Shown here: positions 1,267 to 63,168 of the stretch, piece after piece
Position numbering within the stretch: the stretch's first letter is position 1
How the letters are laid out: the number at the start of each line of letters is the position of its first letter
NCBI GenBank assembly: GCA_963702415.1
Contig: CAVPCP010000008.1
Span: 199,732-263,731 of the forward strand
Source of the DNA: an uncultured Bacteroidales bacterium
Lineage (GTDB): Bacteria; Bacteroidota; Bacteroidia; Bacteroidales; VadinHA17
Length of the DNA: 64,000 nt
Direction of reading: 5' to 3'
Made by a program: the position numbers and the translations under genes
The notes under the pieces: model-generated
Told to the model about the DNA's origin: nothing
Database searches by the model: none
What the model saw: the letters and a program-made list of their open reading frames with translations, nothing else

Positions 1267-1914
1267 ATGAAAAAGAAGGTTGCCCTGAAAAGGATCTTTC
1301 ATCGTGACAGATGGCGTATCGCCATTATATTCGATTATGATGCGAAGCTGAAGGAGATTGTCAGGTCGATAAGCGGATCTGCATTCAGCGGTACCAACAG
1401 GTGTTTTTATGTTGATGATTCGGAGGAGAATCTCAGGATTGTATTAAAAATGCTGAAAGATGATGCCGATATTGATATTTCGCAGATTGTTAAACAGGGT
1501 GAAGAGGAGCGGAAAGAGGCCGTTACGGAAAAGCCTGTGCCGGAAGTGATCAGGCAGGAGGTGATTTATCAAAAAGAATCTGAACCTGAATATCCTAACT
1601 ACAGGAATTCCGGTCCGGTGGAATTCAGGATAAGCGAGAATGAGGGACTCCTTGTAATAAAATTTCTGGGAAGGTATGACCCTGAGTGGATCGATGAGAT
1701 GATGACATATGGCAGATGCTATTACGACAAAAAGAGGAGGGAGTGGATGCTTCAGTGGTCGAAGCTTACATGTGATTCGCTGGCCGATTATTTTGCCGGG
1801 AAAAGGATTAAGGTAAATGTAAAGAAGCAGGTTGTAAGCAATGAGCTGATAGCGGAAAGGAAGGAGACAGGGGAGGAGATACAGGTCGAAGGAGATTGGG
1901 AAGAAGGCGCTTGA
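1267..1914 (+). CDS. N-terminal module of the recombinase locus, with two tandem beta-rich putative DNA-binding domains; ends at a TGA in frame with 1927-2745
   Basis: Two similar segments: HRDRWRIAIIFDYDAKLKEIVRSISGSAFSGTNRCFYV and LLVIKFLGRYDPEWIDEMMTYGRCYYDKKRREWML. Both ORFs are in the same frame (1927-1267=660). The TGA is at 1912-1914. Confidence 0.6.
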   Translation: MKKKVALKRIFHRDRWRIAIIFDYDAKLKEIVRSISGSAFSGTNRCFYVDDSEENLRIVLKMLKDDADIDISQIVKQGEEERKEAVTEKPVPEVIRQEVIYQKESEPEYPNYRNSGPVEFRISENEGLLVIKFLGRYDPEWIDEMMTYGRCYYDKKRREWMLQWSKLTCDSLADYFAGKRIKVNVKKQVVSNELIAERKETGEEIQVEGDWEEGA

Positions 1915-1926
1915 CGGGCTGATTCG

Positions 1927-2745
1927 ATGGCGATGTATCTTGACGAAAACCGTTACAGTCCAAGGACCAGGGAGTCATATCTTTCGATGCTTGAGTTTTT
2001 CTTCAGGTATTTCAGTCCAAAAGAACCATCGGAGATTACTGAGGATGAGATCTCGCGGTTCATTTATGACTTCATAATAAGGCTGGGTTATTCAGCGGCC
2101 TATCAGAACCAGATGGTATCGGCCATAAAGACCTATTATACAATTTCAGGGAAGGGAAAGGTAAATCCGGAGTTTTTTGAACGTCCGCGCAGGAGAAGGG
2201 CGCTTCCTAAGGTTTTTTCGAAGGAAGAAGTGAGCCAGATCCTGAATTCGGCCCGTAACATTAAGCACAAGATGTTATTATGGATGATATACTCATGCGG
2301 ATTAAGGAGGTCGGAGGTAACGAATATCAGGCTTACGGATCTTGACCGCGACAGGGGCATTCTGCATGTCAGGGAAGGCAAGGGAAAGGTTGACAGGATA
2401 GTACCGGTATCGGCGAAGGTATGGGAAAAGATAGATGAGTATACGCGGGGTTACCGGCCGAGGGAATATCTGTTTGAAGGTCAGACAGGAGGGAGGTATT
2501 CATCGGAGAGTGTGTACAGGGTTTTTAAGGATGCACTTTTAAAGGCTGGTATTCATAAGGATGTAGGGGTTCACTGTTTGCGTCACAGTTATGCGACGCA
2601 TCTTCACGAGAGCGGGTTGGACATAAGGTATATCCAGGAGTTACTGGGGCACAAGAGTACGAGGACGACGGAGATTTACACGCATGTAAGCCGGAGGAAT
2701 CTGATAGCGGTAAGGAGTCCGATTGAGGATCTGGATGTGAAGTAG
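1927..2745 (+). CDS. tyrosine site-specific recombinase, catalytic domain (Xer/IntI-related, without the IntI-specific extra domain)
   Basis: Catalytic signature: GLRRSE (Arg I), GKGKVDR (Lys), LRHSYATH (His-x-x-Arg), LLGHKSTRTTEIYTHV (His and the Tyr nucleophile). The C-terminal VRSPIEDL resembles the IntI VRSPLDAL tail. Only about 60 aa lie between KDR and LRHS, versus about 100 aa in IntI1. Confidence 0.9.
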   Translation: MAMYLDENRYSPRTRESYLSMLEFFFRYFSPKEPSEITEDEISRFIYDFIIRLGYSAAYQNQMVSAIKTYYTISGKGKVNPEFFERPRRRRALPKVFSKEEVSQILNSARNIKHKMLLWMIYSCGLRRSEVTNIRLTDLDRDRGILHVREGKGKVDRIVPVSAKVWEKIDEYTRGYRPREYLFEGQTGGRYSSESVYRVFKDALLKAGIHKDVGVHCLRHSYATHLHESGLDIRYIQELLGHKSTRTTEIYTHVSRRNLIAVRSPIEDLDVK

Positions 2746-13610: not shown

Positions 13611-14252
13611 ATGGACTATCTAAAATGCACCAATTGCGGACACTTTAATGAAGTAAAGACTGAGTACTTGACTTTTTGTAAGAACTGTAATAAAGTTTTA
13701 AAGAATAATTTCTCCGACTGGAAAAAAGCCAATCCCAATAAGTCATTCGATGACTTTAAGCAACTATTATGTACTACAAATACAAGTGAAAAATCAAATG
13801 AAAATTCAAAAACAAAAAAATCAAGGGGATTAAAATACTGGGTTGGATTCACCATTGCTTTTGCGCTCTTTTATGTAATTGGACAATTTGGTGGTGATAA
13901 GATCACTTCATATTTCAGAAAGCCATCTATCGATAAAAATCTAATGGAAATAGCTAGTGAGTTAAATAAAACCTGTCCGGTTATGGTGGATAGTCTGACT
14001 CGACTTGATAACACAGTTGCTTTGCCTAATAAAGTATTTCAATATAACTATTCTCTAATCCCAGCGACCAAGGGATCTATTGATTTTGAAGGTCTTAAAG
14101 CCTACCTTACACCCAGAATATTAAATGATGTAAAAACAAATCCTGGCATGAAGTATGTCCGTGACAAAAAAGTTACTGTCAATTATAGTTACAAAGACAT
14201 GAATGGAGAATTCTTATTCCTGATTTCAGTAAAACCAGAAGACTATCAATAA
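13611..14252 (+). CDS. zinc-ribbon / single-TM protein, unknown function (copy 1 of 2)
   Basis: CTNCGH...CKNCNK zinc ribbon and one TM helix. The protein is identical to 25499-26140. Confidence 0.7.
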   Translation: MDYLKCTNCGHFNEVKTEYLTFCKNCNKVLKNNFSDWKKANPNKSFDDFKQLLCTTNTSEKSNENSKTKKSRGLKYWVGFTIAFALFYVIGQFGGDKITSYFRKPSIDKNLMEIASELNKTCPVMVDSLTRLDNTVALPNKVFQYNYSLIPATKGSIDFEGLKAYLTPRILNDVKTNPGMKYVRDKKVTVNYSYKDMNGEFLFLISVKPEDYQ

Positions 14253-14299
14253 TAGTAACATTCACAACCTTACAGTTCAAAAAAAAATAAACAACAGCC

Positions 14300-14692
14300 C
14301 ATAACACGGACGGTATAATTAATAAGCTCGTCACAGTTTTTGCTTTTGTTTCTGCACCCAAGACAGATTCGTAATGGCCTCTAAACCCGGATACGCTCAT
14401 CTGGACTTTATTTAAATCCTGTACCACGACAAATTACTGGCTTCGAGACACATTGTACCGCGACACTGCGCCATTACCCATTTACCAACTTTCTGCAAAC
14501 GAGACTAATTTCCGGCCACTTAGCTGGCTTTGTACCGCGACACGCGTAATGCTAAAGTTAAATTGTACCTGGATGGCAAAAACTGCGCCGTACTCTCCTC
14601 GCACCGTGACAGTCTTCTACCTAAAGTACCAGGACTCTGGTCGGATGCTTTGTCGAGTAACGCTTACTAATTATACCGCCGGGCCGTTGTGC
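14300..14692 (+). repeat. mega-attC-like site 6 (393 bp, A4)
   Basis: CATAAC-ACGGAC-GGTATAATTAATAAGC ... GCTTACTAATTATACC-GCCGGGCC-GTTGTGC. Copy of site 16. Confidence 0.85.
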
Positions 14693-21497: not shown

Positions 21498-22196
21498 ATG
21501 AAGACCTGCTACTTAATTTTAATTGTATTCGTTTTTCTGGCACCCATAAATTTGGAAGCTCAGAGATCAAATAATAATAAAGTGTATGGAACATTTAGTC
21601 AACAACATTTTTACCGATTCATAATAATTGAATTTAAAAAAGACATGACTTTCAACTTCCATATTATGTCTGAAAGAGCTCATAAAAATACAATGGGATC
21701 ATTTAAACTAAATGGAGACACCATATTTTTAAACTCAACTACTGATAAAACAGAATTTGATTTTAAAAACACAAAATGGTTGGTATTATCTCCAAAGAGG
21801 ATATTAATGTCAAACAATAAATCAGTTAGTAAAGAGAGTTGGTCGGTACTTGAGAAAGATAAGAGTTATGAATTTGTCCCAAACGAATTAAGTGATTTGA
21901 AAATTAAAGTTGACAGCATTAAAAAAAACTCACTCGGTTGGAAAGTAGACACTACAAATTATGATTCTGAACTTAAAGTAATAATTCATGAGCCCTTGCC
22001 TCCAAAAGAACCTGTCGTCATTATGGATGGATTACCTGTTAAATATGAGTTCCTATTAAACTATTACACTTTAGCTGATATTCATTCTATCACTTACACA
22101 ACAGCTGACAATTTAATTAATAATGGAATTCATGGTGGCCAAGCAGAATATGGAGTAATAATTCTGACAACAAATAAAAATAAACCGAAACGCTAA
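21498..22196 (+). CDS. secreted protein with a TonB-plug-like C-terminal motif
   Basis: Signal peptide. PVVIMDGLPV...IHSITY...GQAEYGVIILTTNK. The stop TAA is the TAA of the R'' GCTAAC. Confidence 0.6.
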   Translation: MKTCYLILIVFVFLAPINLEAQRSNNNKVYGTFSQQHFYRFIIIEFKKDMTFNFHIMSERAHKNTMGSFKLNGDTIFLNSTTDKTEFDFKNTKWLVLSPKRILMSNNKSVSKESWSVLEKDKSYEFVPNELSDLKIKVDSIKKNSLGWKVDTTNYDSELKVIIHEPLPPKEPVVIMDGLPVKYEFLLNYYTLADIHSITYTTADNLINNGIHGGQAEYGVIILTTNKNKPKR

Positions 22197-22505
22197 CACG
22201 GACAATATGGGTAAGTTGTTTGTCATGGTTTTTGCTTTTGCTCCTGCTCCCAAGACAGATTTGTAATAACTTGTACCGCGACCGCGCCAGTGCCCACCAT
22301 AAAATTTTGTGTACCTTGACTTGTTTCCTGCTTCCTATCAACCTTGTACCGCGACACTCGTATAACTCAGCCAACCTGTACCCGGACGGCAAAAACCACG
22401 CCATACCCTCCTGGCACCGTGACAGCTTTCTGGCTAAAGTACCAGGACTCTGCCCGGATGCTGCGTCGGGTAACACAACCTCCCCATATTGCCGGGCCGT
22501 TAGGC
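22192..22505 (+). repeat. mega-attC-like site 13 (314 bp, shortened A1)
   Basis: GCTAAC...GTTAGGC. The left-central modules are missing. Confidence 0.85.
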
Positions 22506-24924: not shown

Positions 24925-25344
24925 CACTAACACGGACAATATGGGTAAGTTGTTTGTCACACTTTTTGCTTTTGCTCCTGCCCTCAAGACAAATTTGTAA
25001 TGGTTATTGCACCCGGACACCAGCCTTCGCTGAAGCTACGGCTGTCGAAGCGCGCATCTGCCCGCAATTAAAATCCTGCACCTTGACAAATTTCTGGCTC
25101 CAAGATAGTTTGTACCGCGACACTGCGCCAGTGCTCATAACAAACATTCTGCACCGTGACAGTTTACCGGCTTCGATCAAACTTGTACCGCGACACGCGT
25201 ATAGCTCACAAAACTTGTACCCTGACAGCAAAAAGTGCGCCATACCCTCCTTGCACCGTGACAGTTTCGCGGCTAAAGTATCAGGACTCTGCCCGGTGCT
25301 CGCGTCAGGTAACACAACCTCCCTTTATTGCCGGGCCGTTATGG
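24925..25344 (+). repeat. mega-attC-like site 15 (420 bp, A1 plus TTCGCT hairpin insert; mismatched L boxes)
   Basis: CACTAAC...GTTATGG. Left AATATGGG versus right CCCTTTATT. Insert at 25021-25052. Confidence 0.85.
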
Positions 25345-25498: not shown

Positions 25499-26140
25499 AT
25501 GGACTATCTAAAATGCACCAATTGCGGACACTTTAATGAAGTAAAGACTGAGTACTTGACTTTTTGTAAGAACTGTAATAAAGTTTTAAAGAATAATTTC
25601 TCCGACTGGAAAAAAGCCAATCCCAATAAGTCATTCGATGACTTTAAGCAACTATTATGTACTACAAATACAAGTGAAAAATCAAATGAAAATTCAAAAA
25701 CAAAAAAATCAAGGGGATTAAAATACTGGGTTGGATTCACCATTGCTTTTGCGCTCTTTTATGTAATTGGACAATTTGGTGGTGATAAGATCACTTCATA
25801 TTTCAGAAAGCCATCTATCGATAAAAATCTAATGGAAATAGCTAGTGAGTTAAATAAAACCTGTCCGGTTATGGTGGATAGTCTGACTCGACTTGATAAC
25901 ACAGTTGCTTTGCCTAATAAAGTATTTCAATATAACTATTCTCTAATCCCAGCGACCAAGGGATCTATTGATTTTGAAGGTCTTAAAGCCTACCTTACAC
26001 CCAGAATATTAAATGATGTAAAAACAAATCCTGGCATGAAGTATGTCCGTGACAAAAAAGTTACTGTCAATTATAGTTACAAAGACATGAATGGAGAATT
26101 CTTATTCCTGATTTCAGTAAAACCAGAAGACTATCAATAA
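25499..26140 (+). CDS. zinc-ribbon / single-TM protein (copy 2 of 2)
   Basis: Identical in translation to 13611-14252. The whole cassette is duplicated. Confidence 0.7.
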   Translation: MDYLKCTNCGHFNEVKTEYLTFCKNCNKVLKNNFSDWKKANPNKSFDDFKQLLCTTNTSEKSNENSKTKKSRGLKYWVGFTIAFALFYVIGQFGGDKITSYFRKPSIDKNLMEIASELNKTCPVMVDSLTRLDNTVALPNKVFQYNYSLIPATKGSIDFEGLKAYLTPRILNDVKTNPGMKYVRDKKVTVNYSYKDMNGEFLFLISVKPEDYQ

Positions 26141-26187
26141 TAGTAACATTCACAACCTTACAGTTCAAAAAAAAATAAACAACAGCC

Positions 26188-26580
26188 CATAACACGGACG
26201 GTATAATTAATAAGCTCGTCACAGTTTTTGCTTTTGTTTCTGCACCCAAGACAGATTCGTAATGGCCTCTAAACCCGGATACGCTCATCTGGACTTTATT
26301 TAAATCCTGTACCACGACAAATTACTGGCTTCGAGACACATTGTACCGCGACACTGCGCCATTACCCATTTACCAACTTTCTGCAAACGAGACTAATTTC
26401 CGGCCACTTAGCTGGCTTTGTACCGCGACACGCGTAATGCTAAAGTTAAATTGTACCTGGATGGCAAAAACTGCGCCGTACTCTCCTCGCACCGTGACAG
26501 TCTTCTACCTAAAGTACCAGGACTCTGGTCGGATGCTTTGTCGAGTAACGCTTACTAATTATACCGCCGGGCCGTTATGG
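26188..26580 (+). repeat. mega-attC-like site 16 (393 bp, A4; copy of site 6)
   Basis: CATAAC...GTTATGG. Confidence 0.85.
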
Positions 26581-32083: not shown

Positions 32084-32659
32084 ATGAGAGTTACCCTGAA
32101 ACACATCGGATTTCTTATTGGACTAATTTTGGTAATTATAAGTCCGATGTTCAATGCAAGACAACAATCAGTTTATCTGATTTTACTTCTATCTGGATTA
32201 TTAATCGCAGGTATTTGCTTTTTAATCATCCTTTTAACAAAAAGTTCGAAAAAAAGCAAAATTCTATGGTTCTTAATTCTCTTGTCAGCAATTGCAATAC
32301 AAATATTGATAGAACCGATCTTCAATAGAATATCCTTTAGACTCTTTCTTTCACAAAATGAAAAAGTAATGGATCAAATAAACAGAATATTACTGCCAAA
32401 GGAATTCGAAATTCAGATTTTAAAAGATTCTATTTATGATAAAAATCAATTGTCTGCAAATGATAAAAAGCTGCTCAAGGACTTGATTTTGAAAGTTGAT
32501 TCCTACTACATTTCGAAATATGATAATCAAGTCTATTATGAAATATATGGATTTCTTGATTTCAGAATTGGCATAACGTATAAGCCTACACGATCACCAA
32601 ATGATAATAATCTAAAACATCTTAAAAATAATTGGTATATCCAGATGACAAACAATTAA
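32084..32659 (+). CDS. membrane protein, unknown function (copy 1 of 2)
   Basis: 3 TM helices followed by a soluble tail. Identical to 37850-38425. Confidence 0.6.
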   Translation: MRVTLKHIGFLIGLILVIISPMFNARQQSVYLILLLSGLLIAGICFLIILLTKSSKKSKILWFLILLSAIAIQILIEPIFNRISFRLFLSQNEKVMDQINRILLPKEFEIQILKDSIYDKNQLSANDKKLLKDLILKVDSYYISKYDNQVYYEIYGFLDFRIGITYKPTRSPNDNNLKHLKNNWYIQMTNN

Positions 32660-32669
32660 CAATGCAGTT

Positions 32670-33087
32670 GCTAACACGGACAATATGGGTAAGTTGTTTG
32701 TCACACTTTTTGCTTTTGCTTCTGCTTTCTAGACAGCTTTGTAATGATATATGCACCCGGACACCCACCTTCGCTCCGCTTCGGTGGGCAAAGCGCGCAT
32801 CTACCCGCAATTGAAATCCTGCACCGTGATAAATTACTGCCTTCGAGATAGTTTGTACCGCGACACTGCGCCAGTGCCCGCTACCTACTTTGTAACCGGG
32901 GATAAATTCGCGGCTCCGATCAAACTTGTACCGCGACACTCGTATAGGTCATCAAGTTTGTACCCGGACGGCAAAAAGTGCGCCATACCCTCCTTGCACC
33001 GTGACAGCTTTCTGGCTAAAGTACCAGGACCCTGCCCGGTGCTGTCGTCGGGTAACACAACCTCCCCATATTGCCGGGCCGTTATAG
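32670..33087 (+). repeat. mega-attC-like site 21 (418 bp, A1 plus TTCGCT hairpin insert)
   Basis: GCTAAC...GTTATAG. Insert CCCACCTTCGCTCCGCTTCGGTGGG at 32764-32788. Confidence 0.9.
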
Positions 33088-37849: not shown

Positions 37850-38425
37850 ATGAGAGTTACCCTGAAACACATCGGATTTCTTATTGGACTAATTTTGGTA
37901 ATTATAAGTCCGATGTTCAATGCAAGACAACAATCAGTTTATCTGATTTTACTTCTATCTGGATTATTAATCGCAGGTATTTGCTTTTTAATCATCCTTT
38001 TAACAAAAAGTTCGAAAAAAAGCAAAATTCTATGGTTCTTAATTCTCTTGTCAGCAATTGCAATACAAATATTGATAGAACCGATCTTCAATAGAATATC
38101 CTTTAGACTCTTTCTTTCACAAAATGAAAAAGTAATGGATCAAATAAACAGAATATTACTGCCAAAGGAATTCGAAATTCAGATTTTAAAAGATTCTATT
38201 TATGATAAAAATCAATTGTCTGCAAATGATAAAAAGCTGCTCAAGGACTTGATTTTGAAAGTTGATTCCTACTACATTTCGAAATATGATAATCAAGTCT
38301 ATTATGAAATATATGGATTTCTTGATTTCAGAATTGGCATAACGTATAAGCCTACACGATCACCAAATGATAATAATCTAAAACATCTTAAAAATAATTG
38401 GTATATCCAGATGACAAACAATTAA
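37850..38425 (+). CDS. membrane protein (copy 2 of 2)
   Basis: Identical in translation to 32084-32659. Confidence 0.6.
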   Translation: MRVTLKHIGFLIGLILVIISPMFNARQQSVYLILLLSGLLIAGICFLIILLTKSSKKSKILWFLILLSAIAIQILIEPIFNRISFRLFLSQNEKVMDQINRILLPKEFEIQILKDSIYDKNQLSANDKKLLKDLILKVDSYYISKYDNQVYYEIYGFLDFRIGITYKPTRSPNDNNLKHLKNNWYIQMTNN

Positions 38426-38435
38426 CAATGCAGTT

Positions 38436-38853
38436 GCTAACACGGACAATATGGGTAAGTTGTTTGTCACACTTTTTGCTTTTGCTTCTGCTTTCTAGAC
38501 AGCTTTGTAATGATATATGCACCCGGACACCCACCTTCGCTCCGCTTCGGTGGGCAAAGCGCGCATCTACCCGCAATTGAAATCCTGCACCGTGATAAAT
38601 TACTGCCTTCGAGATAGTTTGTACCGCGACACTGCGCCAGTGCCCGCTACCTACTTTGTAACCGGGGATAAATTCGCGGCTCCGATCAAACTTGTACCGC
38701 GACACTCGTATAGGTCATCAAGTTTGTACCCGGACGGCAAAAAGTGCGCCATACCCTCCTTGCACCGTGACAGCTTTCTGGCTAAAGTACCAGGACCCTG
38801 CCCGGTGCTGTCGTCGGGTAACACAACCTCCCCATATTGCCGGGCCGTTATAG
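38436..38853 (+). repeat. mega-attC-like site 27 (418 bp; copy of site 21)
   Basis: GCTAAC...GTTATAG. Confidence 0.9.
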
Positions 38854-41941: not shown

Positions 41942-42370
41942 CATAACACGGACAATATGGGTAAGTTGTTTGTCACGGTTTTTGCTTTTACTCCTGCACG
42001 CAAGACAGCTTTGTAATGGTATATGCACCCGGACACGCTCATCTACCTGCTATTTAAACCCTGCACCTTGACAAATTTCTTGCTCCGAGACAAATTGTAC
42101 CGCGACACTGCGCCAGTGCCCTCCATCAAATTTGTAACCGGGGATAATTTCGCGGCTCCGATCAACTTTGTACCGCGACACGCGTAATGCTCAATAAAAT
42201 TTGTACCTGGACGGCAAAAAGTGCGCCCCCGCTTTCGCTGCGCTACTGCGGGGCAGGCTCCCCCTCCTTGCACCGGGACAGTTTCGTGGCCCCGCTAAGG
42301 CGGGGTACCTGGACCCTGCCCGGTGCTACGTCGGGTAACACAACCTCCCCATATTGCCGGGCCGTTAGCA
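41942..42370 (+). repeat. mega-attC-like site 30 (429 bp, A1 plus two hairpin insertions)
   Basis: CATAAC...GTTAGCA. Inserts at 42227-42253 and 42290-42305. Confidence 0.85.
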
Positions 42371-45199: not shown

Positions 45200-45545
45200 C
45201 CTAACACGGACAATAAAATTAATAGGTTTGTCACAAGTTTTGCTTTTGCTCCTGCACCCATGACAGCTCTGTAACCGGTGATAAACCCGGACCGCGCCAC
45301 TGCACCGCATAAAAATTCTGCACCGTGGCTATTATATCGTTCGCATCAACTTTGTACCGCGACACACGTAATGCTCAATAAAATTTGTACCCGGATGGCA
45401 AAAAGTGCGCCCCCGCTTTCGCTGCGCTACTGCGGGGCAGGCTCCCCCTCCTTGCACCGGGACAGCTTGGTGGCTAAAGTACCGGGACCCTGCCCGGTGC
45501 TTGCGTCGGGTAACACAACCTCCCCATATTGCCGGGCCGTTATAA
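45200..45545 (+). repeat. mega-attC-like site 33 (346 bp, chimeric: A5 left end, A1 right end)
   Basis: CCTAAC-ACGGAC-AATAAAATTAATAGGT on the left, ACAACCTCCCCATATT on the right. TTCGCT hairpin at 45411-45437. Confidence 0.8.
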
Positions 45546-46086: not shown

Positions 46087-46433
46087 TATAACACGGACAA
46101 TATGGGTAAGTTGCTTGTCACGGTTTTTGCTTTTGCTCCTGCCACCTAGACAGAACCGTAATGCTTGACAAATCCAGACCGCGCCACAACTGTTAACAAA
46201 ATAACAATACCTGGATAGTTCCCCATTCGTAAGATAACTTGTACCGCGACACTCGTAATGCTCAGCCAAATTAGTACCCGGACTGCAAAAACACGTGCCC
46301 CCGCTTTCGCTGCGCTACTGCGGGGCAGGCTCCCCCTCCTTGCACCGTGACAGCTTTCTGGCTAAAGTATCGGGATCGTGACCGGATGCTGCGTCGGGTA
46401 ACACAACCTCCCCATATTGCCGGGCCGTTAGCG
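46087..46433 (+). repeat. mega-attC-like site 34 (347 bp, A2 plus hairpin)
   Basis: TATAAC...GTTAGCG. Near-copy of site 45. Confidence 0.85.
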
Positions 46434-47050: not shown

Positions 47051-47508
47051 CGCTAACACGGACAATATGGGTAAGTTGTTTGTCACACTTTTTGCTTTTG
47101 CTTCTGCTCCCAAGATAAATCCGTAATGACTGTTGCACCCGGACCCTTCGCTCCGCTCAGGACAGGTACGCGCATCTGCCCGCAATCAAAATCCTGTACC
47201 TTGACAAATTTCTGGCTCCGAGACAGCTTGTACTCCCGAGTACTCGGGACCAGTGCCCGCAACCAACTCTGTAACCGGGGATAAATTCGCGGCTCCTATT
47301 AAACTTGTACCGCGACCGCGCCTTCACCCAATAAAATTTGTACCATGACGGCAAAAAGTGCGCCCCCGCTTTCGCTGCGCTACTGCGGGGCAGGCTCCCC
47401 CTCCTTGCACCGTGACAACTTTCTGGCCCCGCCTGAGGCGGGGTACCAGGACACAACCGGTGCTATCGTCGGGTAACACAACCTCCCCATATTGCCGGGC
47501 CGTTAGCC
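47051..47508 (+). repeat. mega-attC-like site 35 (458 bp, A1 plus four small insertions)
   Basis: GCTAAC...GTTAGCC. Inserts near 47145-47171, 47234-47249, 47364-47390 and 47427-47443. Confidence 0.85.
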
Positions 47509-49241: not shown

Positions 49242-49695
49242 CATAACACGGACAATATGGGTAAGTTGTTTCCCGCTTTTTTATTGAAAAAGCGGGACAG
49301 GTCGTCACGGTTTTTGCTTTTGCTCCTGCTCCCCAGACAAATTTGTAATGGTTGTTGCACCCTGACACGCTCATCTGCATGCAATTAAAATCGTGCACCG
49401 TGACAGATTTCTGGCTCCGAGATAGTTTTTACCGCGACTCTACGCCAGTGCTGTTAATAAAATAACAATACCTTGATAATTTCCCAGTTACTTTGAAAGC
49501 TTGTACCGCGACACGCGAAATGTTCAATAAAATTTGTACCATGACTGCAAAAACACGCGCCCCCGCTTTCGCTGCGCTACTGCGGGGCAGGCTCCCCCTC
49601 CTTGCACCGTGACAGTTTTCTGGCTAAAGAACACAGGACGTGGCCGGTGCTGTCGTCGGGTAACACAACCTCCCCATATTGCCGGGCCGTTAGCA
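49242..49695 (+). repeat. mega-attC-like site 37 (454 bp)
   Basis: CATAAC...GTTAGCA. Left-arm hairpin at 49272-49296 and TTCGCT hairpin at about 49561-49587. Confidence 0.85.
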
Positions 49696-50009: not shown

Positions 50010-50294
50010 ATGGACCAATCAGAGATTAAAAATATAATCTTGAGTCACTTAAAAGGATTTAATCCGATTAAGGTTGGTATCTTCGGCTCTTTTGCCAGAG
50101 GAGATAATAAAAAGGGCAGTGATATCGATATCTTAGTAGAGTTCAAAGAGGCTCCTTCTTTATTGACACTTATTAAATTAGAGAATGACCTTTCCGAAAT
50201 TATTGGTGTTAAGGTTGACCTTGTGACAACTGGTGCCTTGAAAAATAAGAGAATCAAAAAGAGCATTAAGAAAGACCTCATTAGCATATTGTAA
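50010..50294 (+). CDS. nucleotidyltransferase (MNT-type antitoxin)
   Basis: GIFGSFARGDNKKGSDIDILVEF matches the minimal NTase motif GS...D.D. Confidence 0.85.
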   Translation: MDQSEIKNIILSHLKGFNPIKVGIFGSFARGDNKKGSDIDILVEFKEAPSLLTLIKLENDLSEIIGVKVDLVTTGALKNKRIKKSIKKDLISIL

Positions 50295-50626
50295 TGATTA
50301 AGGACGATCTCGCTTACATAGAGCATATTATTGATTGTATCAGAAAAATCAATGAGTTTAGTAACGGACTGTCCTTGAAAGAATTTAAGACAAATGAGAT
50401 GGTTCAGGATGCCATCATTAGAAATATTGAGATAATTGGGGAGGCTTCAAAAAAAATCTCTAAAGACACAAAGCAAACTTATTATAAAATCCCTTGGAAA
50501 GAGATTGCAGGTATGAGGGACAAACTCATCCATGACTATTTAGGGGTTGATGTTACTGTTGTTTGGAAGACTATCCATCAAGATATTCCTACACTTGAGA
50601 AACTTATCAGTGAGATAGAAAAATAA
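50294..50626 (+). CDS. HEPN/DUF86 toxin
   Basis: 4-nt overlap with the NTase gene. RNIEIIGEA and MRDKLIHDY (the HEPN Rx4-6H motif). Confidence 0.85.
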   Translation: MIKDDLAYIEHIIDCIRKINEFSNGLSLKEFKTNEMVQDAIIRNIEIIGEASKKISKDTKQTYYKIPWKEIAGMRDKLIHDYLGVDVTVVWKTIHQDIPTLEKLISEIEK

Positions 50627-50637
50627 TCTATACATGT

Positions 50638-51017
50638 GCTAACACGGACAATATGGGTAAGTTGTTTCCCGCTTTTTTATTGAAAAAGCGGGACAGGTCG
50701 TCACGGTTTTTGCTTTTACTCCTGCTACCAAGACAGGATCGTAATGCTTGACAAAACCGGACCGCGCCACTGCTGTTAACAAAATAACAATACCGGGATA
50801 GATCCTCGTTCATTTAGTAACCTTGTACCGCGACACTCGTATAACTCATATAACTTAGTACCTTGACTGCAAAAACACATGCCCCCGCTTTCGCTGCGCT
50901 ACTGCGGGGCAGGCTCCCCCTCCTTGCAACGTGACAGTATCGCAGCTAAAGTACCAGGACCCTGTTCGGTGCTCGCGTCGGGTAACGCTTACTAATTATA
51001 CCGGCGGGCCGTTAGCT
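50638..51017 (+). repeat. mega-attC-like site 38 (380 bp, chimeric ends)
   Basis: GCTAAC-ACGGACAATATGGG on the left, GCTTACTAATTATACC-GGCGGGCC-GTTAGCT on the right. Confidence 0.8.
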
Positions 51018-51979: not shown

Positions 51980-52338
51980 GCTAACACGGACAATATGGGT
52001 AAGCTGTTTGTCACATTTTTTGCTTTTGTTCCTGCTTCCAAGTCGGAATTGTACCATCTGACAAACCCGGACCGCGCCACTGCCCTCAATAAACTTAACT
52101 GTACCTGGATAAATGACAAACACCTTGACATCTCTGTACCGCGAAGCTCGTAAAGGCCATAAAACGCTGTACCCGGATGGCAAAAAATGCGCCCCCGCTT
52201 TCGCTGCGCTACTGCGGGACAGGCTCCCCCTCCTTGCACCGTGACAGCTTTCTGGCTAAAGTATCATCCCGAGTACTCGGGACTACCCGGTGCTTGCGTC
52301 GGGTAACACAACCTCCCCATATTGCCGGGCCGTTAGGT
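51980..52338 (+). repeat. mega-attC-like site 39 (359 bp, A2 plus inserts)
   Basis: GCTAAC...GTTAGGT. Palindrome TCCCGAGTACTCGGGA at 52267-52282. Confidence 0.85.
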
Positions 52339-52952: not shown

Positions 52953-53480
52953 CCTAACACGGACAATATGGGTAAGTTGTTTCCCGCTTTTTTATTGAAA
53001 AAGCGGGACAGGTCGTCACGGTTTTTGCTTTTGCTCCTGCTCCCCAGACAAATTTGTAATGGTTGTTGCACCCTGACACCAGCCTTCGCTGAAGCTACGG
53101 CTGTCGAAGCGCTCATCTGCATGCAATTAAAATCGTGCACCGTGACAGATTTCTGGCTCCGAGATAGTTTGTACCCCCGCTTTCGCTTCGCTTCTGCGGG
53201 GCACGGCGCGACTCTACGCCAGTGCTGTTAATAAAATAACAATACCTTGATAATTTCCCAGTTACTTTGAAAGCTTGTACCGCGACACGCGAAATGTTCA
53301 ATAAAATTTGTACCATGACTGCAAAAAGTGCGCCCCCGCTTTCGCTGCGCTACTGCGGGGCAGGCTCCCCCTCCTTGCACCGTGACAGCTTTCTGGCTAA
53401 AGTACCAGTCCCGCGTACGCGGGATGCCCGGTGCTGTCGTCGGGTTACGCCTACTAAAACATACCGCCGGGCCGTTATAA
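52953..53480 (+). repeat. mega-attC-like site 40 (528 bp, the longest; five small insertions; chimeric ends)
   Basis: CCTAAC...GTTATAA. Inserts near 52983-53007, 53080-53111, 53175-53201, 53334-53360 and 53409-53424. Confidence 0.85.
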
Positions 53481-55620: not shown

Positions 55621-56080
55621 TATAACACGGACAATATGGGTAAGTTGTTTCCCGCTTTTTTATTGAAAAAGCGGGACAGGTCGTCACGGTTTTTGCTTTT
55701 GCTTCTGCTCACAAGACAGCTTTGTAATGGTATATGAACCCGGACACCAGCCTTCGCTGAGGCTAAGGCTGTCGAAGCGCACACCTGCCCTCAATTAAAA
55801 TCCTACACCGTGACAGATATCTGGCTCCGAGACAGATTGTACCTCGACACTGCGCCAGTGCCCGTCACCAAATTTGTAACCGGGGATAACCTCGCGGCTC
55901 CGATCAAACTTGTACCGCGACACGCGTAATGCTCAATAAAATCTGTACCATGACTGCAAAAACACGCGCCATGCTTCACTCATTACGGCCTCAGAAGTAT
56001 TATCTCCCGATGCCGGGACACCACTCTCGGCCTCCATTCGTTCAGCAACGCTTTCTAATTATACTGCCGGGCCGTTAGCA
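55621..56080 (+). repeat. mega-attC-like site 41 (460 bp; right arm as in site 3; chimeric ends)
   Basis: TATAAC-ACGGACAATATGGG on the left, GCTTTCTAATTATACT-GCCGGGCC-GTTAGCA on the right. Confidence 0.8.
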
Positions 56081-57835: not shown

Positions 57836-58123
57836 CACTAACACGGACAATATGGGTAAGTTGTTTCCCGCTTTTTTATTGAAAAAGCGGGACAGGTCGT
57901 CATGGTTTTTGCTTTTGTTCCTACTCCCAAGACAGATTGGTAATAGTTTTTGTACCCGGACACCAGCCTTCGCTGAAGCTACGGCTGGCAAAACGCGCAT
58001 CTGCCCGCAATTTAAATCCTGCACCGTGACAGCTTTCTGGCTAAAGTACCAGTCCCGCGTACGCGGGATGCTCGGATTCTTCGTCGGGTAACACAACCTC
58101 CCCATATTGCCGGGCCGTTATGG
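57836..58123 (+). repeat. mega-attC-like site 42 (288 bp, central modules deleted)
   Basis: CACTAAC...GTTATGG. Confidence 0.85.
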
Positions 58124-59144: not shown

Positions 59145-59388
59145 CATAACACGGACAATATGGGTAAGTTGTTTCCCGCTTTTTTATTGAAAAAGCGGGA
59201 CAGGTCGTCACGGTTTTTGCTTTGCTCCTGCTCCCAAGACAAATTCGTAATAGCCTTTGCACCCGGACACCCTCACCTGCTCACAATTATAATCCTGCAC
59301 CGTGACAGATTTTTGGCTAAAGTATCGAGACCCTAACCGGTGCTGTCGTCGGGTAACACAACCTCCCCATATTGCCGGGCCGTTAGCC
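59145..59388 (+). repeat. mega-attC-like site 43 (244 bp, the shortest)
   Basis: CATAAC...GTTAGCC. Confidence 0.85.
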
Positions 59389-60472: not shown

Positions 60473-60759
60473 GCTAACACGGACAATATGGGTAAGTTGT
60501 TTCCCGCTTTTTTATTGAAAAAGCGGGACAGGTCGTCATGCTTTTTGCTTTTGCTCCTGAACTCAAGACAGCTTTGTAATGGTTCTTGCACCCGGACACC
60601 AGCCTTCGCTGAAGCTACGGCTGTCGAAGCGCGCACCTGCCCGCAATATAAATCCTGCACCGTGACATTTTTCTGGCTAAAGTACCAGTCCCGCGTACGC
60701 GGGATGCCCGGTGCTTGCGTCGGGTAACACAACCTCCCCATATTGCCGGGCCGTTATGT
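60473..60759 (+). repeat. mega-attC-like site 44 (287 bp, central modules deleted)
   Basis: GCTAAC...GTTATGT. Confidence 0.85.
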
Positions 60760-62822: not shown

Positions 62823-63168
62823 CATAACACGGACAATATGGGTAAGTTGCTTGTCACGGTTTTTGCTTTTGCTCCTGCCACCTAGACAGAACCGTAATGC
62901 TTGACAAATCCAGACCGCGCCACAACTGTTAACAAAATAACAATACCTGGATAGTTCCCCATTCGTAAGATAACTTGTACCGCGACACTCGTAATGCTCA
63001 GCCAAATTAGTACCCGGACTGCAAAAACACGTGCCCCCGCTTTCGCTGCGCTACTGCGGGGCAGGCTCCCCTCCTTGCACCGTGACAGCTTTCTGGCTAA
63101 AGTATCAGGATCGTGACCGGTGCTTGCGTCGGGTAACACAACCTCCCCATATTGCCGGGCCGTTAGCG
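62823..63168 (+). repeat. mega-attC-like site 45 (346 bp, A2; near-copy of site 34)
   Basis: CATAAC...GTTAGCG. Confidence 0.85.

Follow-up and report, generated by a model that had tools for sequence, protein, structure and literature searches.

Within a 64,000-nt stretch of DNA from an uncultured Bacteroidales bacterium (GenBank contig CAVPCP010000008.1, positions 199,732 to 263,731), which is referred to here as the window, short GC-rich hairpins interrupt the large, attC-like sites of an integron-like cassette array. The hairpins were added secondarily to the variable interior of the sites. We give about an even chance to the reading that they form a family of GC-rich, single-strand DNA hairpin modules, resembling the repetitive extragenic palindromic (REP) elements, that were placed secondarily in giant attC-like sites. 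The copy singled out in an earlier, preliminary description of this sequence lies on the + strand at 25020..25050, inside the site at 24928..25341. All 18 hairpins listed in that description are real, and each is found on the + strand, where it had been placed or at most one base away.

The modules share a common anatomy, namely a GC stem of 5-7 bp, a loop of 13-15 nt composed of GCTNC pentamers and a short C-R-N-R-G tail, with a total length of about 31 nt. The hairpins measure 24-27 nt and the inserts 30-35 nt, and these are non-coding, with frame-breaking indels. The loop had originally been given as TTCGCT-NN-GCT; a conserved loop is indeed present, but three bases of the A loop are variable, and the pentamers describe it better. 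The sequence TTCGCTNNGCT occurs 13 times in the window, always on the + strand, as compared to 0.34 occurrences expected from shuffled sequences, while TTCGCTNNNGCT occurs five times, as compared to 0.27 expected. A scan of the whole window for perfect hairpins that are rich in GC, with 6 bp or more of stem and a loop of 3-18 nt, returned 34, all of them inside sites. The probability that the inserts are chance GC-rich fragments or an assembly artefact is thus close to nil: the motif is short, with nothing else in favor of such an origin, while the excess over shuffles, the location of all perfect hairpins inside sites and the recurrence of the same inserts in many independent metagenome assemblies and metagenome-assembled genomes (MAGs) all argue against it.

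Four types of insert, all of them on the + strand, are referred to here as A to D. The A type, CAGCC-TTCGCTGAAGCTAC-GGCTG, is found unmodified at 25021, 53080 and 60600. In the first of these, the hairpin (25021-25044) and its tail TCGAAG form a clean 31-nt insertion after CCCGGACA, as seen by comparison with sites that lack it. The other A inserts, identified by pattern matches or the hairpin scan together with site alignment, lie at 53079..53109 (in the site 52955-53477), 55747..55777 (with two loop changes, GAGGCTAA), 57963..57993 (with a stem one pair longer, CCAGCC/GGCTGG, and the tail CAAAA) and 60599..60629. The B type, CCCACC-TTCGCTCCGCTTC-GGTGGG followed by CAAAG, occupies the same scaffold position as A at 32764..32793, as it does in a MAG locus (L022). 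Its second copy, at 38530..38559, lies in a duplicated cassette, the sites 32672-33084 and 38438-38850 being identical, and the two copies therefore represent one event. A module with a weak stem, CCTTCGCTCCGCTCAGG, is found at the A/B position at 47145..47161, and recurs at model positions 88 and 307 in other arrays. The C type, CCCCGC-TTTCGCTGCGCTACT-GCGGGG followed by CAGGCTCC, sits at the 3' foot of helix P2, one of the two covarying helices of the site described below. Pattern matches and site alignment, joined by the hairpin scan for the first copy, place it at 42227..42261, 45411..45445, 46299..46333, 47364..47398, 49561..49595, 50883..50917, 52193..52227 (where the 3' arm reads GCGGGA), 53334..53368 and 63035..63069. 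The single D insert of the window, CCCCGC-TTTCGCTTCGCTTCT-GCGGGG followed by CACGG, is a clean 32-nt indel at 53175..53206, between the halves TTGTAC and CGCGAC of a conserved box; D inserts occupy the same box, or its paralogue, in five other loci (L011, L035, L037, L040 and L042). The three scaffold positions named in the preliminary description are correct, as judged by the site alignments.

That the inserts are later additions is seen in a comparison of two sites, 49244-49692 and 52955-53477. Across about 330 nt of otherwise identical sequence, these differ in a single base and in two clean indels, namely the A insert of 31 nt and the D insert of 32 nt. The junctions of both indels are ambiguous by at most 1 nt, so that no target duplication accompanies them. 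The same two indels exclude a coding reading of the inserts, and bear out the view, already held in the preliminary description, that the inserts are homologous, secondary and non-coding. For C, the 35-nt insert is identical in eight of nine sites and differs by one substitution in the ninth, while the 85 nt 5' of the insert present a mean identity of only 73% (minimum 58%). In four C-bearing sites, the closest scaffold relative is without C, indicating that C reached at least five site lineages that had already diverged. The hairpins also follow the order of the array. A TTCGCT-type hairpin is found in 12 of the 16 sites beyond 41.9 kb and in two of the 25 before (Fisher p = 1.6e-5), and the number of inserted bases correlates with array position (Spearman rho 0.62). 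If cassettes enter beside the recombinase, as they do in integrons, the gradient would reflect hairpin build-up with residence time, and may help to order cassettes accordingly; local conversion between neighboring sites would, however, yield the same distal gradient.

The hairpin is also found away from such arrays. A scan of a genome collection for the C/D stem-loop yielded 42 loci. An identical 27-mer, CCCCGCTTTCGCTGCGCTACTGCGGGG, with another tail, CGCGCCTCCGGTCGG, lies in ordinary intergenic DNA on four Lentimicrobium MAG contigs and in another Bacteroidales MAG, and a close variant occurs on four contigs of Bacteroidetes SH-MAG12 (55% G+C), once as a tandem pair. None of these non-array loci from the Lentimicrobium, Bacteroidales and SH-MAG12 MAGs matches the profile hidden Markov model (HMM) of the site. 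As the identical stem-loop is present in intergenic DNA that is not a site, the hairpin should be considered a free-standing repeat module of Bacteroidota, rather than part of the site. One Lentimicrobium MAG contig (L016) carries a 143-nt double-hairpin composite twice, at 328-470 and 1944-2086, as direct repeats that are 94% identical and flank an AAA-ATPase (DUF4143) gene; 19-nt tandem repeats, TTGTCCCGAAACTTCGGGA, adjoin the composite at 65-137. This may be a different cassette-like arrangement, or one like the bacterial interspersed mosaic elements (BIMEs). Two related viral contigs of 62-66% G+C (L044:13742-13761, just 3' of an apparent stop codon, and L045:40-59) contain CCGCC-TTCGCTGAAGCTAC-GGCGG, i.e. 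the A loop on a compensated stem. By a rough estimate, about 0.7 such matches would be expected by chance, so that the two found are only suggestive. The viral scan for the C/D pattern gave one match, which is coding-like and was taken as chance.

The preliminary description had called the hairpins REP-like and proposed a search for the pattern outside the array. The REP-like label agrees with the presence of the hairpin between ordinary genes in MAGs of Lentimicrobium and other Bacteroidota. Less in line with it, no RAYT gene was found among the about 48 window ORFs scanned, and neither a GTAG tag beside the stem nor inverted doublets were seen; likewise, such outside copies do exist, but the C and D copies found in array-bearing genomes are all in sites. 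In the literature that could be searched, we found no description of REP-like repeats in Bacteroidota or Bacteroidales.

The host array spans 5166-63165 (about 5.2-63.2 kb) and comprises about 44 conserved elements, all on the + strand, each running from TAAC to GTTA with a canonical length of 384-388 nt (range 239-523 nt). Together, they make up 28% of the window, the G+C content of which is about 38%. Upstream of each site lies one + strand open reading frame (ORF), occasionally two, and the cargo is mixed, including a GNAT acetyltransferase, a HepT toxin, an immunity protein, hydrolases and many ORFs without a Pfam match. Sites such as that hosting the named copy (24928..25341, + strand) were delimited by their boundaries and helices. 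Their ends pair as helix P1, TAAC-A-CGG-A-CAATATGGG-TAA-GTTGT with ACAAC-CTC-CCCATATTG-C-CGG-GGCC-GTTA. This pairing covaries in 15 sites of the window and in a wider sample of 237 unique sites from the window, MAGs and metagenomes, the metagenomes having been scanned for the conserved 3' arm (at least 120 loci). In this sample, position 16:368, for example, is GC in 143 sites and AT in 46, the R box is 100% Watson-Crick paired, and helices P1a-c are 95-99% paired with two to three pair types per position. The second helix, P2, formed by GTCACGGTTTTTGC with GCAAAAAC-CGTGCC, covaries as well, with GC at position 34:280 in 90 sites and AT in 118. The interior helices predicted by RNAalifold are weak, with P3 and P3a only 65-78% paired, and a candidate helix beside the A/B position (model positions 94-96 with 105-107) presents no covariation; the structural argument is therefore built on P1 and P2 only.

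The decisive support for an integron-like array comes from the boundaries between cassettes. The 5 nt after GTTA and the 5 nt before the next TAAC are complementary at a mean of 4.46 of 5 positions, as compared to 1.5 within one site and 1.7 for random pairs, which, by analogy with integrons, reads as the signature of cassettes that circularize and recombine between the G and the TTA of the core. The paired TAAC/GTTA inverse core and core, together with bulged imperfect inverted repeats, are as in attC sites, while the site length lies outside the usual attC range (384-388 nt canonical, as compared to about 55-141 nt). Taken together, the boundary pairing, the covarying end helices and the recombinase upstream identify the scaffold as a giant attC-like site of an integron-like array. 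Standard attC searches are limited to about 200 nt, and at such a limit would miss sites of 384-388 nt. Our search of the available literature on Bacteroidota and Bacteroidales returned no description of integron-like arrays of this sort.

To define where inserts occur, the 237 sites were aligned to a profile of insert-free sites and inserts of at least 10 nt were counted. The inserts cluster at about ten hot spots. In model coordinates, these are 26-28, between helices P1 and P2; 42-45, just 3' of the P2 5' strand; 87-93; 158 and 231, inside the paralogous boxes into which D enters; 285-288, the 3' foot of P2; 294-301, between TTGCAC and CGTGAC of a related box; 307-310; 319-322, which corresponds to the apical loop of a local hairpin and is the most frequently used; and 327-332. 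The inserts sit at junctions between helices or at the tips of hairpins, and very few of them reach into the strands of P1 or P2. This fits the suggestion of an expansion tolerated by the fold, and mapping onto the consensus fold, which had been proposed as a check, places nearly all insert positions outside the strands of both covarying helices. The same hairpin can enter at different points: A-type hairpins are also found at model position 26 in another MAG (L035, L037), and D occupies either of the two paralogous boxes. Orientation is strict, with the TTCGCT motif on the top strand 39 times and on the bottom strand never.

The stems vary as well. Two pairing registers are superimposed in the hairpin alignment (A2), and stem pairs were therefore counted starting at the loop. 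In this way, ten inner stems, all of them Watson-Crick paired, were found on one loop core (CCGC, AGCC, CACC, CAAC, CGCC, GGCC, CCCG, CCCA, CCGT and ACCC). This confirms the claim of a conserved loop with compensating stems. Equally common, however, is the converse, in which a conserved YCCCGC/GCGGGR stem carries unrelated loops, as well as perfect palindromes, so that a description by conserved loop and variable stem is incomplete. Three further families, not listed in the preliminary description although all of those it did list are present, were found in the same sites by the hairpin scan. The E hairpin, TCCCGCTTTTTTATTGAAAAAGCGGGA, which was also placed by site alignment, lies at the P1/P2 junction in seven copies (49271..49297 and at 50667, 52982, 55650, 57866, 59174 and 60502). 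The F family, CCCCGC-TAAG/CTGAG-GCGGGG, includes the GC clamp CCCCGCTAAGGCGGGG, which stands in place of the apical loop CTAAAG at 42290..42305, with a second copy at 47427-47443. The G family consists of perfect palindromes, TCCCGAGTACTCGGGA and TCCCGCGTACGCGGGA, centered on GTAC; TCCCGCGTACGCGGGA is found at 53409..53424 and at 58053 and 60689, and the related CCCGAGTACTCGGG at 47235, 48610 and 52268. All of these copies are on the + strand. Inserts with CCTGCC/GGCAGG repeats, which form long perfect palindromes such as CCTGCCTGCCGGCAGGCAGG, were also seen (L037:4522-4562, L037:1713-1749 on the - strand, L035 and metagenome sites), and this insert type recurs at two hot spots (model positions 45 and 292).

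Folding energies of the sites point to the bottom strand. The predicted DNA folding energy is lower for the bottom strand in 42 of 42 sites, and the z-score relative to shuffles is better for this strand in all eight sites examined. When the core of the loop, GCTT(T)CGC, is read on the bottom strand, it becomes GCGA(A)AGC, and the conserved loop reads GCGNAGC/GCGAAAGC. Specifically, the C loop contains GCGCAGC and then GCGAAAGC, the D loop GCGAAGC and then GCGAAAGC, and the B loop GCGGAGC. Mini-hairpins of the d(GCGNAGC)/d(GCGNNAGC) type melt at 71-76.5 C as DNA and at 39 C as RNA, and in the origin of phage G4 they mark a hairpin that is not bound by single-strand DNA-binding protein (SSB) (PMC13037366). 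Mismatches in the scaffold conflict in this respect: A.C in P2, found in 172 sites, favors the bottom strand, while T.G in H3, found in 165, favors the top. By analogy with integrons, the bottom strand would be the recombining strand, and the hairpin would presumably be recognized in its single-stranded form.

In the explanation that we prefer, the module would act on the bottom strand, where its loop is predicted to be a very stable DNA mini-hairpin, so that each module would be a compact, fast-folding knot, possibly resistant to SSB. Such a knot would be tolerated only at the junctions and tips of the variable region, and may even be favored there, in that it would give a very long site stable local folds. 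Their spread within arrays would be due mainly to copy-choice or to short-patch conversion among paralogous sites, and that between unrelated contexts to some strand-specific activity.

A number of findings weigh against this explanation and need to be considered. The A loop is without the exact mini-hairpin motif, and the window-wide counts of GCGNAGC and GCGNNAGC barely exceed those in shuffled sequences, such that they are not independent evidence. Mismatches in imperfect stems are without strand bias (30 G.T and 30 A.C). The C insert replaces 3 nt and is thus not a clean insertion; moreover, it is always found at one position and clustered in neighboring sites, a pattern for which gene conversion by itself could be sufficient. 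In two exceptional cases, an insert divides helix P1c. In the array-bearing genomes matched by the scan, 11 of 11 exact C/D matches lie inside sites, and array loci totaling 504 kb contain the motif 51 times within sites; the five occurrences elsewhere are each without a stem. Finally, no Y1/HUH or other transposase was found among about 48 window ORFs or among eight ORFs neighboring copies in other loci; the search for a RAYT or IS200-type Y1 transposase, which the preliminary description had proposed, thus came back negative for the window.

Some of these findings are relevant to an alternative in which the hairpins are structural expansion segments that arose in place and were never mobile: selection for stable local folds would make GC clamps time and again at junctions and hairpin tips, gene conversion among the many paralogous sites would homogenize them, and the hairpins of other Bacteroidota would be convergent or unrelated. 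We regard this as possible, although doubtful. Besides the single, clustered position of C and the confinement of all copies to sites in array-bearing genomes, it is favored by the apical loop, the commonest hot spot, in which CTAAAG has given way to small GC clamps of at least 15 different kinds. Tips have also been exchanged: the local hairpin GTAC-CGCGACACTGCG-CCAGTGC ends in a GC clamp instead of its usual tip in L037 and in the site at 47054, with the outer stem, GTAC...GTGC, kept, and in L035 the entire 3' domain has been exchanged for a 17-nt hairpin. Nonetheless, an origin in place does not account for an identical 27-nt stem-loop in unrelated intergenic contexts of other genera, nor for the A-type hairpin at two non-homologous scaffold positions (26 and 93). 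In addition, the boundaries of the shared segments are exact, and adjacent polymorphisms were not co-converted, despite flanks that are 58-100% identical.

The strict 39:0 orientation and the conservation of the loop core on ten covarying stems can also be read differently, namely as a loop that is presented by the stem so as to be bound or nicked by the recombinase, an HUH nuclease or a host factor, and that regulates site folding or excision, in a manner comparable to rolling-circle origins. The recombinase of the array adds to this, as it has an extra N-terminal domain of about 200 residues with no Pfam match that is conserved in homologues of about 470 residues. Protein recognition is, however, decidedly unlikely in our view, as most sites are without a hairpin, which is hence not required for site function, as many of the co-occurring hairpins share the stem and have unrelated loops, and as the hairpin is present in genomic loci with neither a site nor a recombinase nearby.

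The recombinase in question is a tyrosine recombinase encoded upstream of the array, on the same strand as the cassettes (1267..2745, +), as assigned by profile matches and comparison with homologues. It is divided into an N-terminal domain ORF (1267-1914) and a catalytic ORF (1927-2745), with an in-frame TGA at 1912-1914 between them. The homologues are single proteins, and the first ORF matches their N-terminal domain. The TGA could mark a pseudogene, reflect an error of sequencing or be a point of regulated read-through. Among family profiles, XerA/integron-integrase NF040815 gives the best match, just above its cutoff (223.5, cutoff 220). The integron integrase family TIGR02249 scores only 185.7 bits (cutoff 265), and its alignment is broken into two parts that leave out the insertion, from which it follows that the recombinase is without the IntI-specific insertion. 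Just upstream of the N-terminal ORF, at 1128-1175, lie about six units of a tandem heptamer, GGGCAAA.

A more specific possibility, which we put forward tentatively and consider unlikely, is that the modules are strand-specific, single-strand DNA mobile elements with a tandem d(GCGNAGC) loop on the recombining strand. These would be inserted without target duplication, often after GNAC, by a single-strand enzyme, possibly the N-terminally extended tyrosine recombinase of the array itself, and would tune site folding and hence cassette excision. Among the sequences at the points of entry, it was observed that several hairpins enter exactly 3' of TTGYAC.

As the hairpins are situated 3' of each cassette ORF, on its coding strand, and have GC-rich stems, and as the Lentimicrobium copies are intergenic, the modules might instead act at the RNA level, as 3'-end stabilizers or terminators in cassette transcripts, much as REP elements protect upstream mRNA. 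We consider this very unlikely. No hairpin is followed by a T run and none was called in a terminator scan, the L016 copies are opposite in orientation to the flanking gene, and the stability of the conserved core is far greater in DNA form than in RNA form. An intrinsic terminator can thus be rejected, the tails reading CAGGCTCC, CACGG or TCGAAG. No Rfam family reached its gathering score in the window, and when E values of up to 10 were allowed, the segment 52940-53560 yielded nothing but noise.

Comparison with known systems places the modules among small palindromic repeats. As in the REP, BIME and REPIN (REP doublets forming hairpins) elements of Proteobacteria, which are mobilized by RAYT Y1 enzymes, the modules are non-coding imperfect palindromes of 20-40 nt in many near-identical copies, with stem covariation within families, intergenic dispersal in Lentimicrobium and other MAGs, and tandem composites, such as the 143-nt repeat of L016. 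They differ from REP elements and REPINs in that no GTAG/CGTC tag stands beside the stem, where flanks vary by position (GTAG is found only within the A and C loops, on the bottom strand); no inverted doublets are formed, all 39 copies having one orientation and the Lentimicrobium pairs being direct repeats; no RAYT was found among the same window and neighboring ORFs; the conserved loop is long (13-15 nt); and the copies in array-bearing genomes are confined to recombination sites. Miniature inverted-repeat transposable elements (MITEs) present terminal inverted repeats and a target-site duplication, unlike the A and D indels with their junction ambiguity of at most 1 nt. Palindrome-associated elements derived from IS200/IS605-type insertion sequences (IS) enter one strand, 3' of a fixed short target, without duplicating it. 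Here, duplication is lacking and orientation is strict, and several inserts follow TTGYAC or GGACA, while C and E follow other sequences.

The attC sites of integrons have a variable terminal structure and are colonized by IS1111-attC elements and group IIC-attC introns. The host sites resemble them in the TAAC/GTTA inverse cores, the bulged imperfect inverted repeats and the boundary complementarity, and the inserts lie between the conserved arms, where attC sites tolerate variation. In contrast to attC and IntI, the sites are 384-388 nt long, and the recombinase lacks the IntI insertion and has an added N-terminal domain; the colonizers, too, are 30-nt hairpins, rather than insertion sequences or introns. 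A second comparison is offered by the GC clusters of yeast mitochondria and the Rickettsia palindromic elements, which are GC-rich palindromic clusters of AT-rich organelle and endosymbiont genomes. Like these, the modules are short GC-rich hairpins in AT-rich DNA that are found at tolerated positions of folded conserved sequences, often as filled and empty alleles, while lineage and sequence differ, the host is a recombination site and orientation is strict. Finally, the B, C and D loops carry, on their bottom strand, the sequence motif of the d(GCGNAGC)/d(GCGNNAGC) mini-hairpins (PMC13037366). Those mini-hairpins are known mainly from single-strand phage origins and synthetic uses. We know of no instance of d(GCGNAGC) mini-hairpins in dispersed repeats or recombination sites.

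The hairpin family is new as far as the searched libraries show, being a small repeat family across Bacteroidota that was previously undescribed as far as the literature was searched. What is unusual is its confinement to giant attC-like sites and its strict orientation, and the array that hosts the hairpins is of no less interest than they are. Strict orientation, placement at junctions and tips and compensatory stems suggest that the 385-nt sites are selected as folded single strands. This evidence for folding supports the integron-like reading, with attC sites that are about three times longer than those known to date. If the mini-hairpin idea holds, a well-studied curiosity of DNA would gain a natural role in the folding of recombination sites.

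Several minor features of the sites and cassettes were also noted. Every site contains a repeated box of 12-13 nt, TTGYACCNNGAC(A), loosely TGT-N6-ACA (e.g. at 25075-25262), with 119 copies window-wide that are mostly 33-36 or about 73 nt apart. These boxes could be arm-type binding sites for the extra domain of the recombinase. Short classes of sites are without one or more 73-nt double units (59147-59385, 57839-58120, 60475-60756 and sites of about 310 nt, such as 22194-22502), showing that the interior can drop whole repeat units while the arms are kept. Two cassettes are duplicated together with their sites (13611-14689 and 25499-26577; 32084-33084 and 37850-38850), so that cassettes have been rearranged or copied within the array. 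BLAST of one hairpin-rich site against plasmids and phages gave no match. Three long contigs with recombinase homologues (L167, L170 and L171) end no more than about 3-4 kb past the gene, at the point at which sites first appear; the repeated sites seem to break assemblies, and arrays are probably under-represented in MAGs. Toxin-antitoxin cassettes are typical of chromosomal integrons as well. In the window, a two-gene cassette (50010-50626) consists of a HepT-like toxin (50294-50626) and what is probably its antitoxin (50010-50294), and the first cassette of L170 carries HigB-like and HTH genes.

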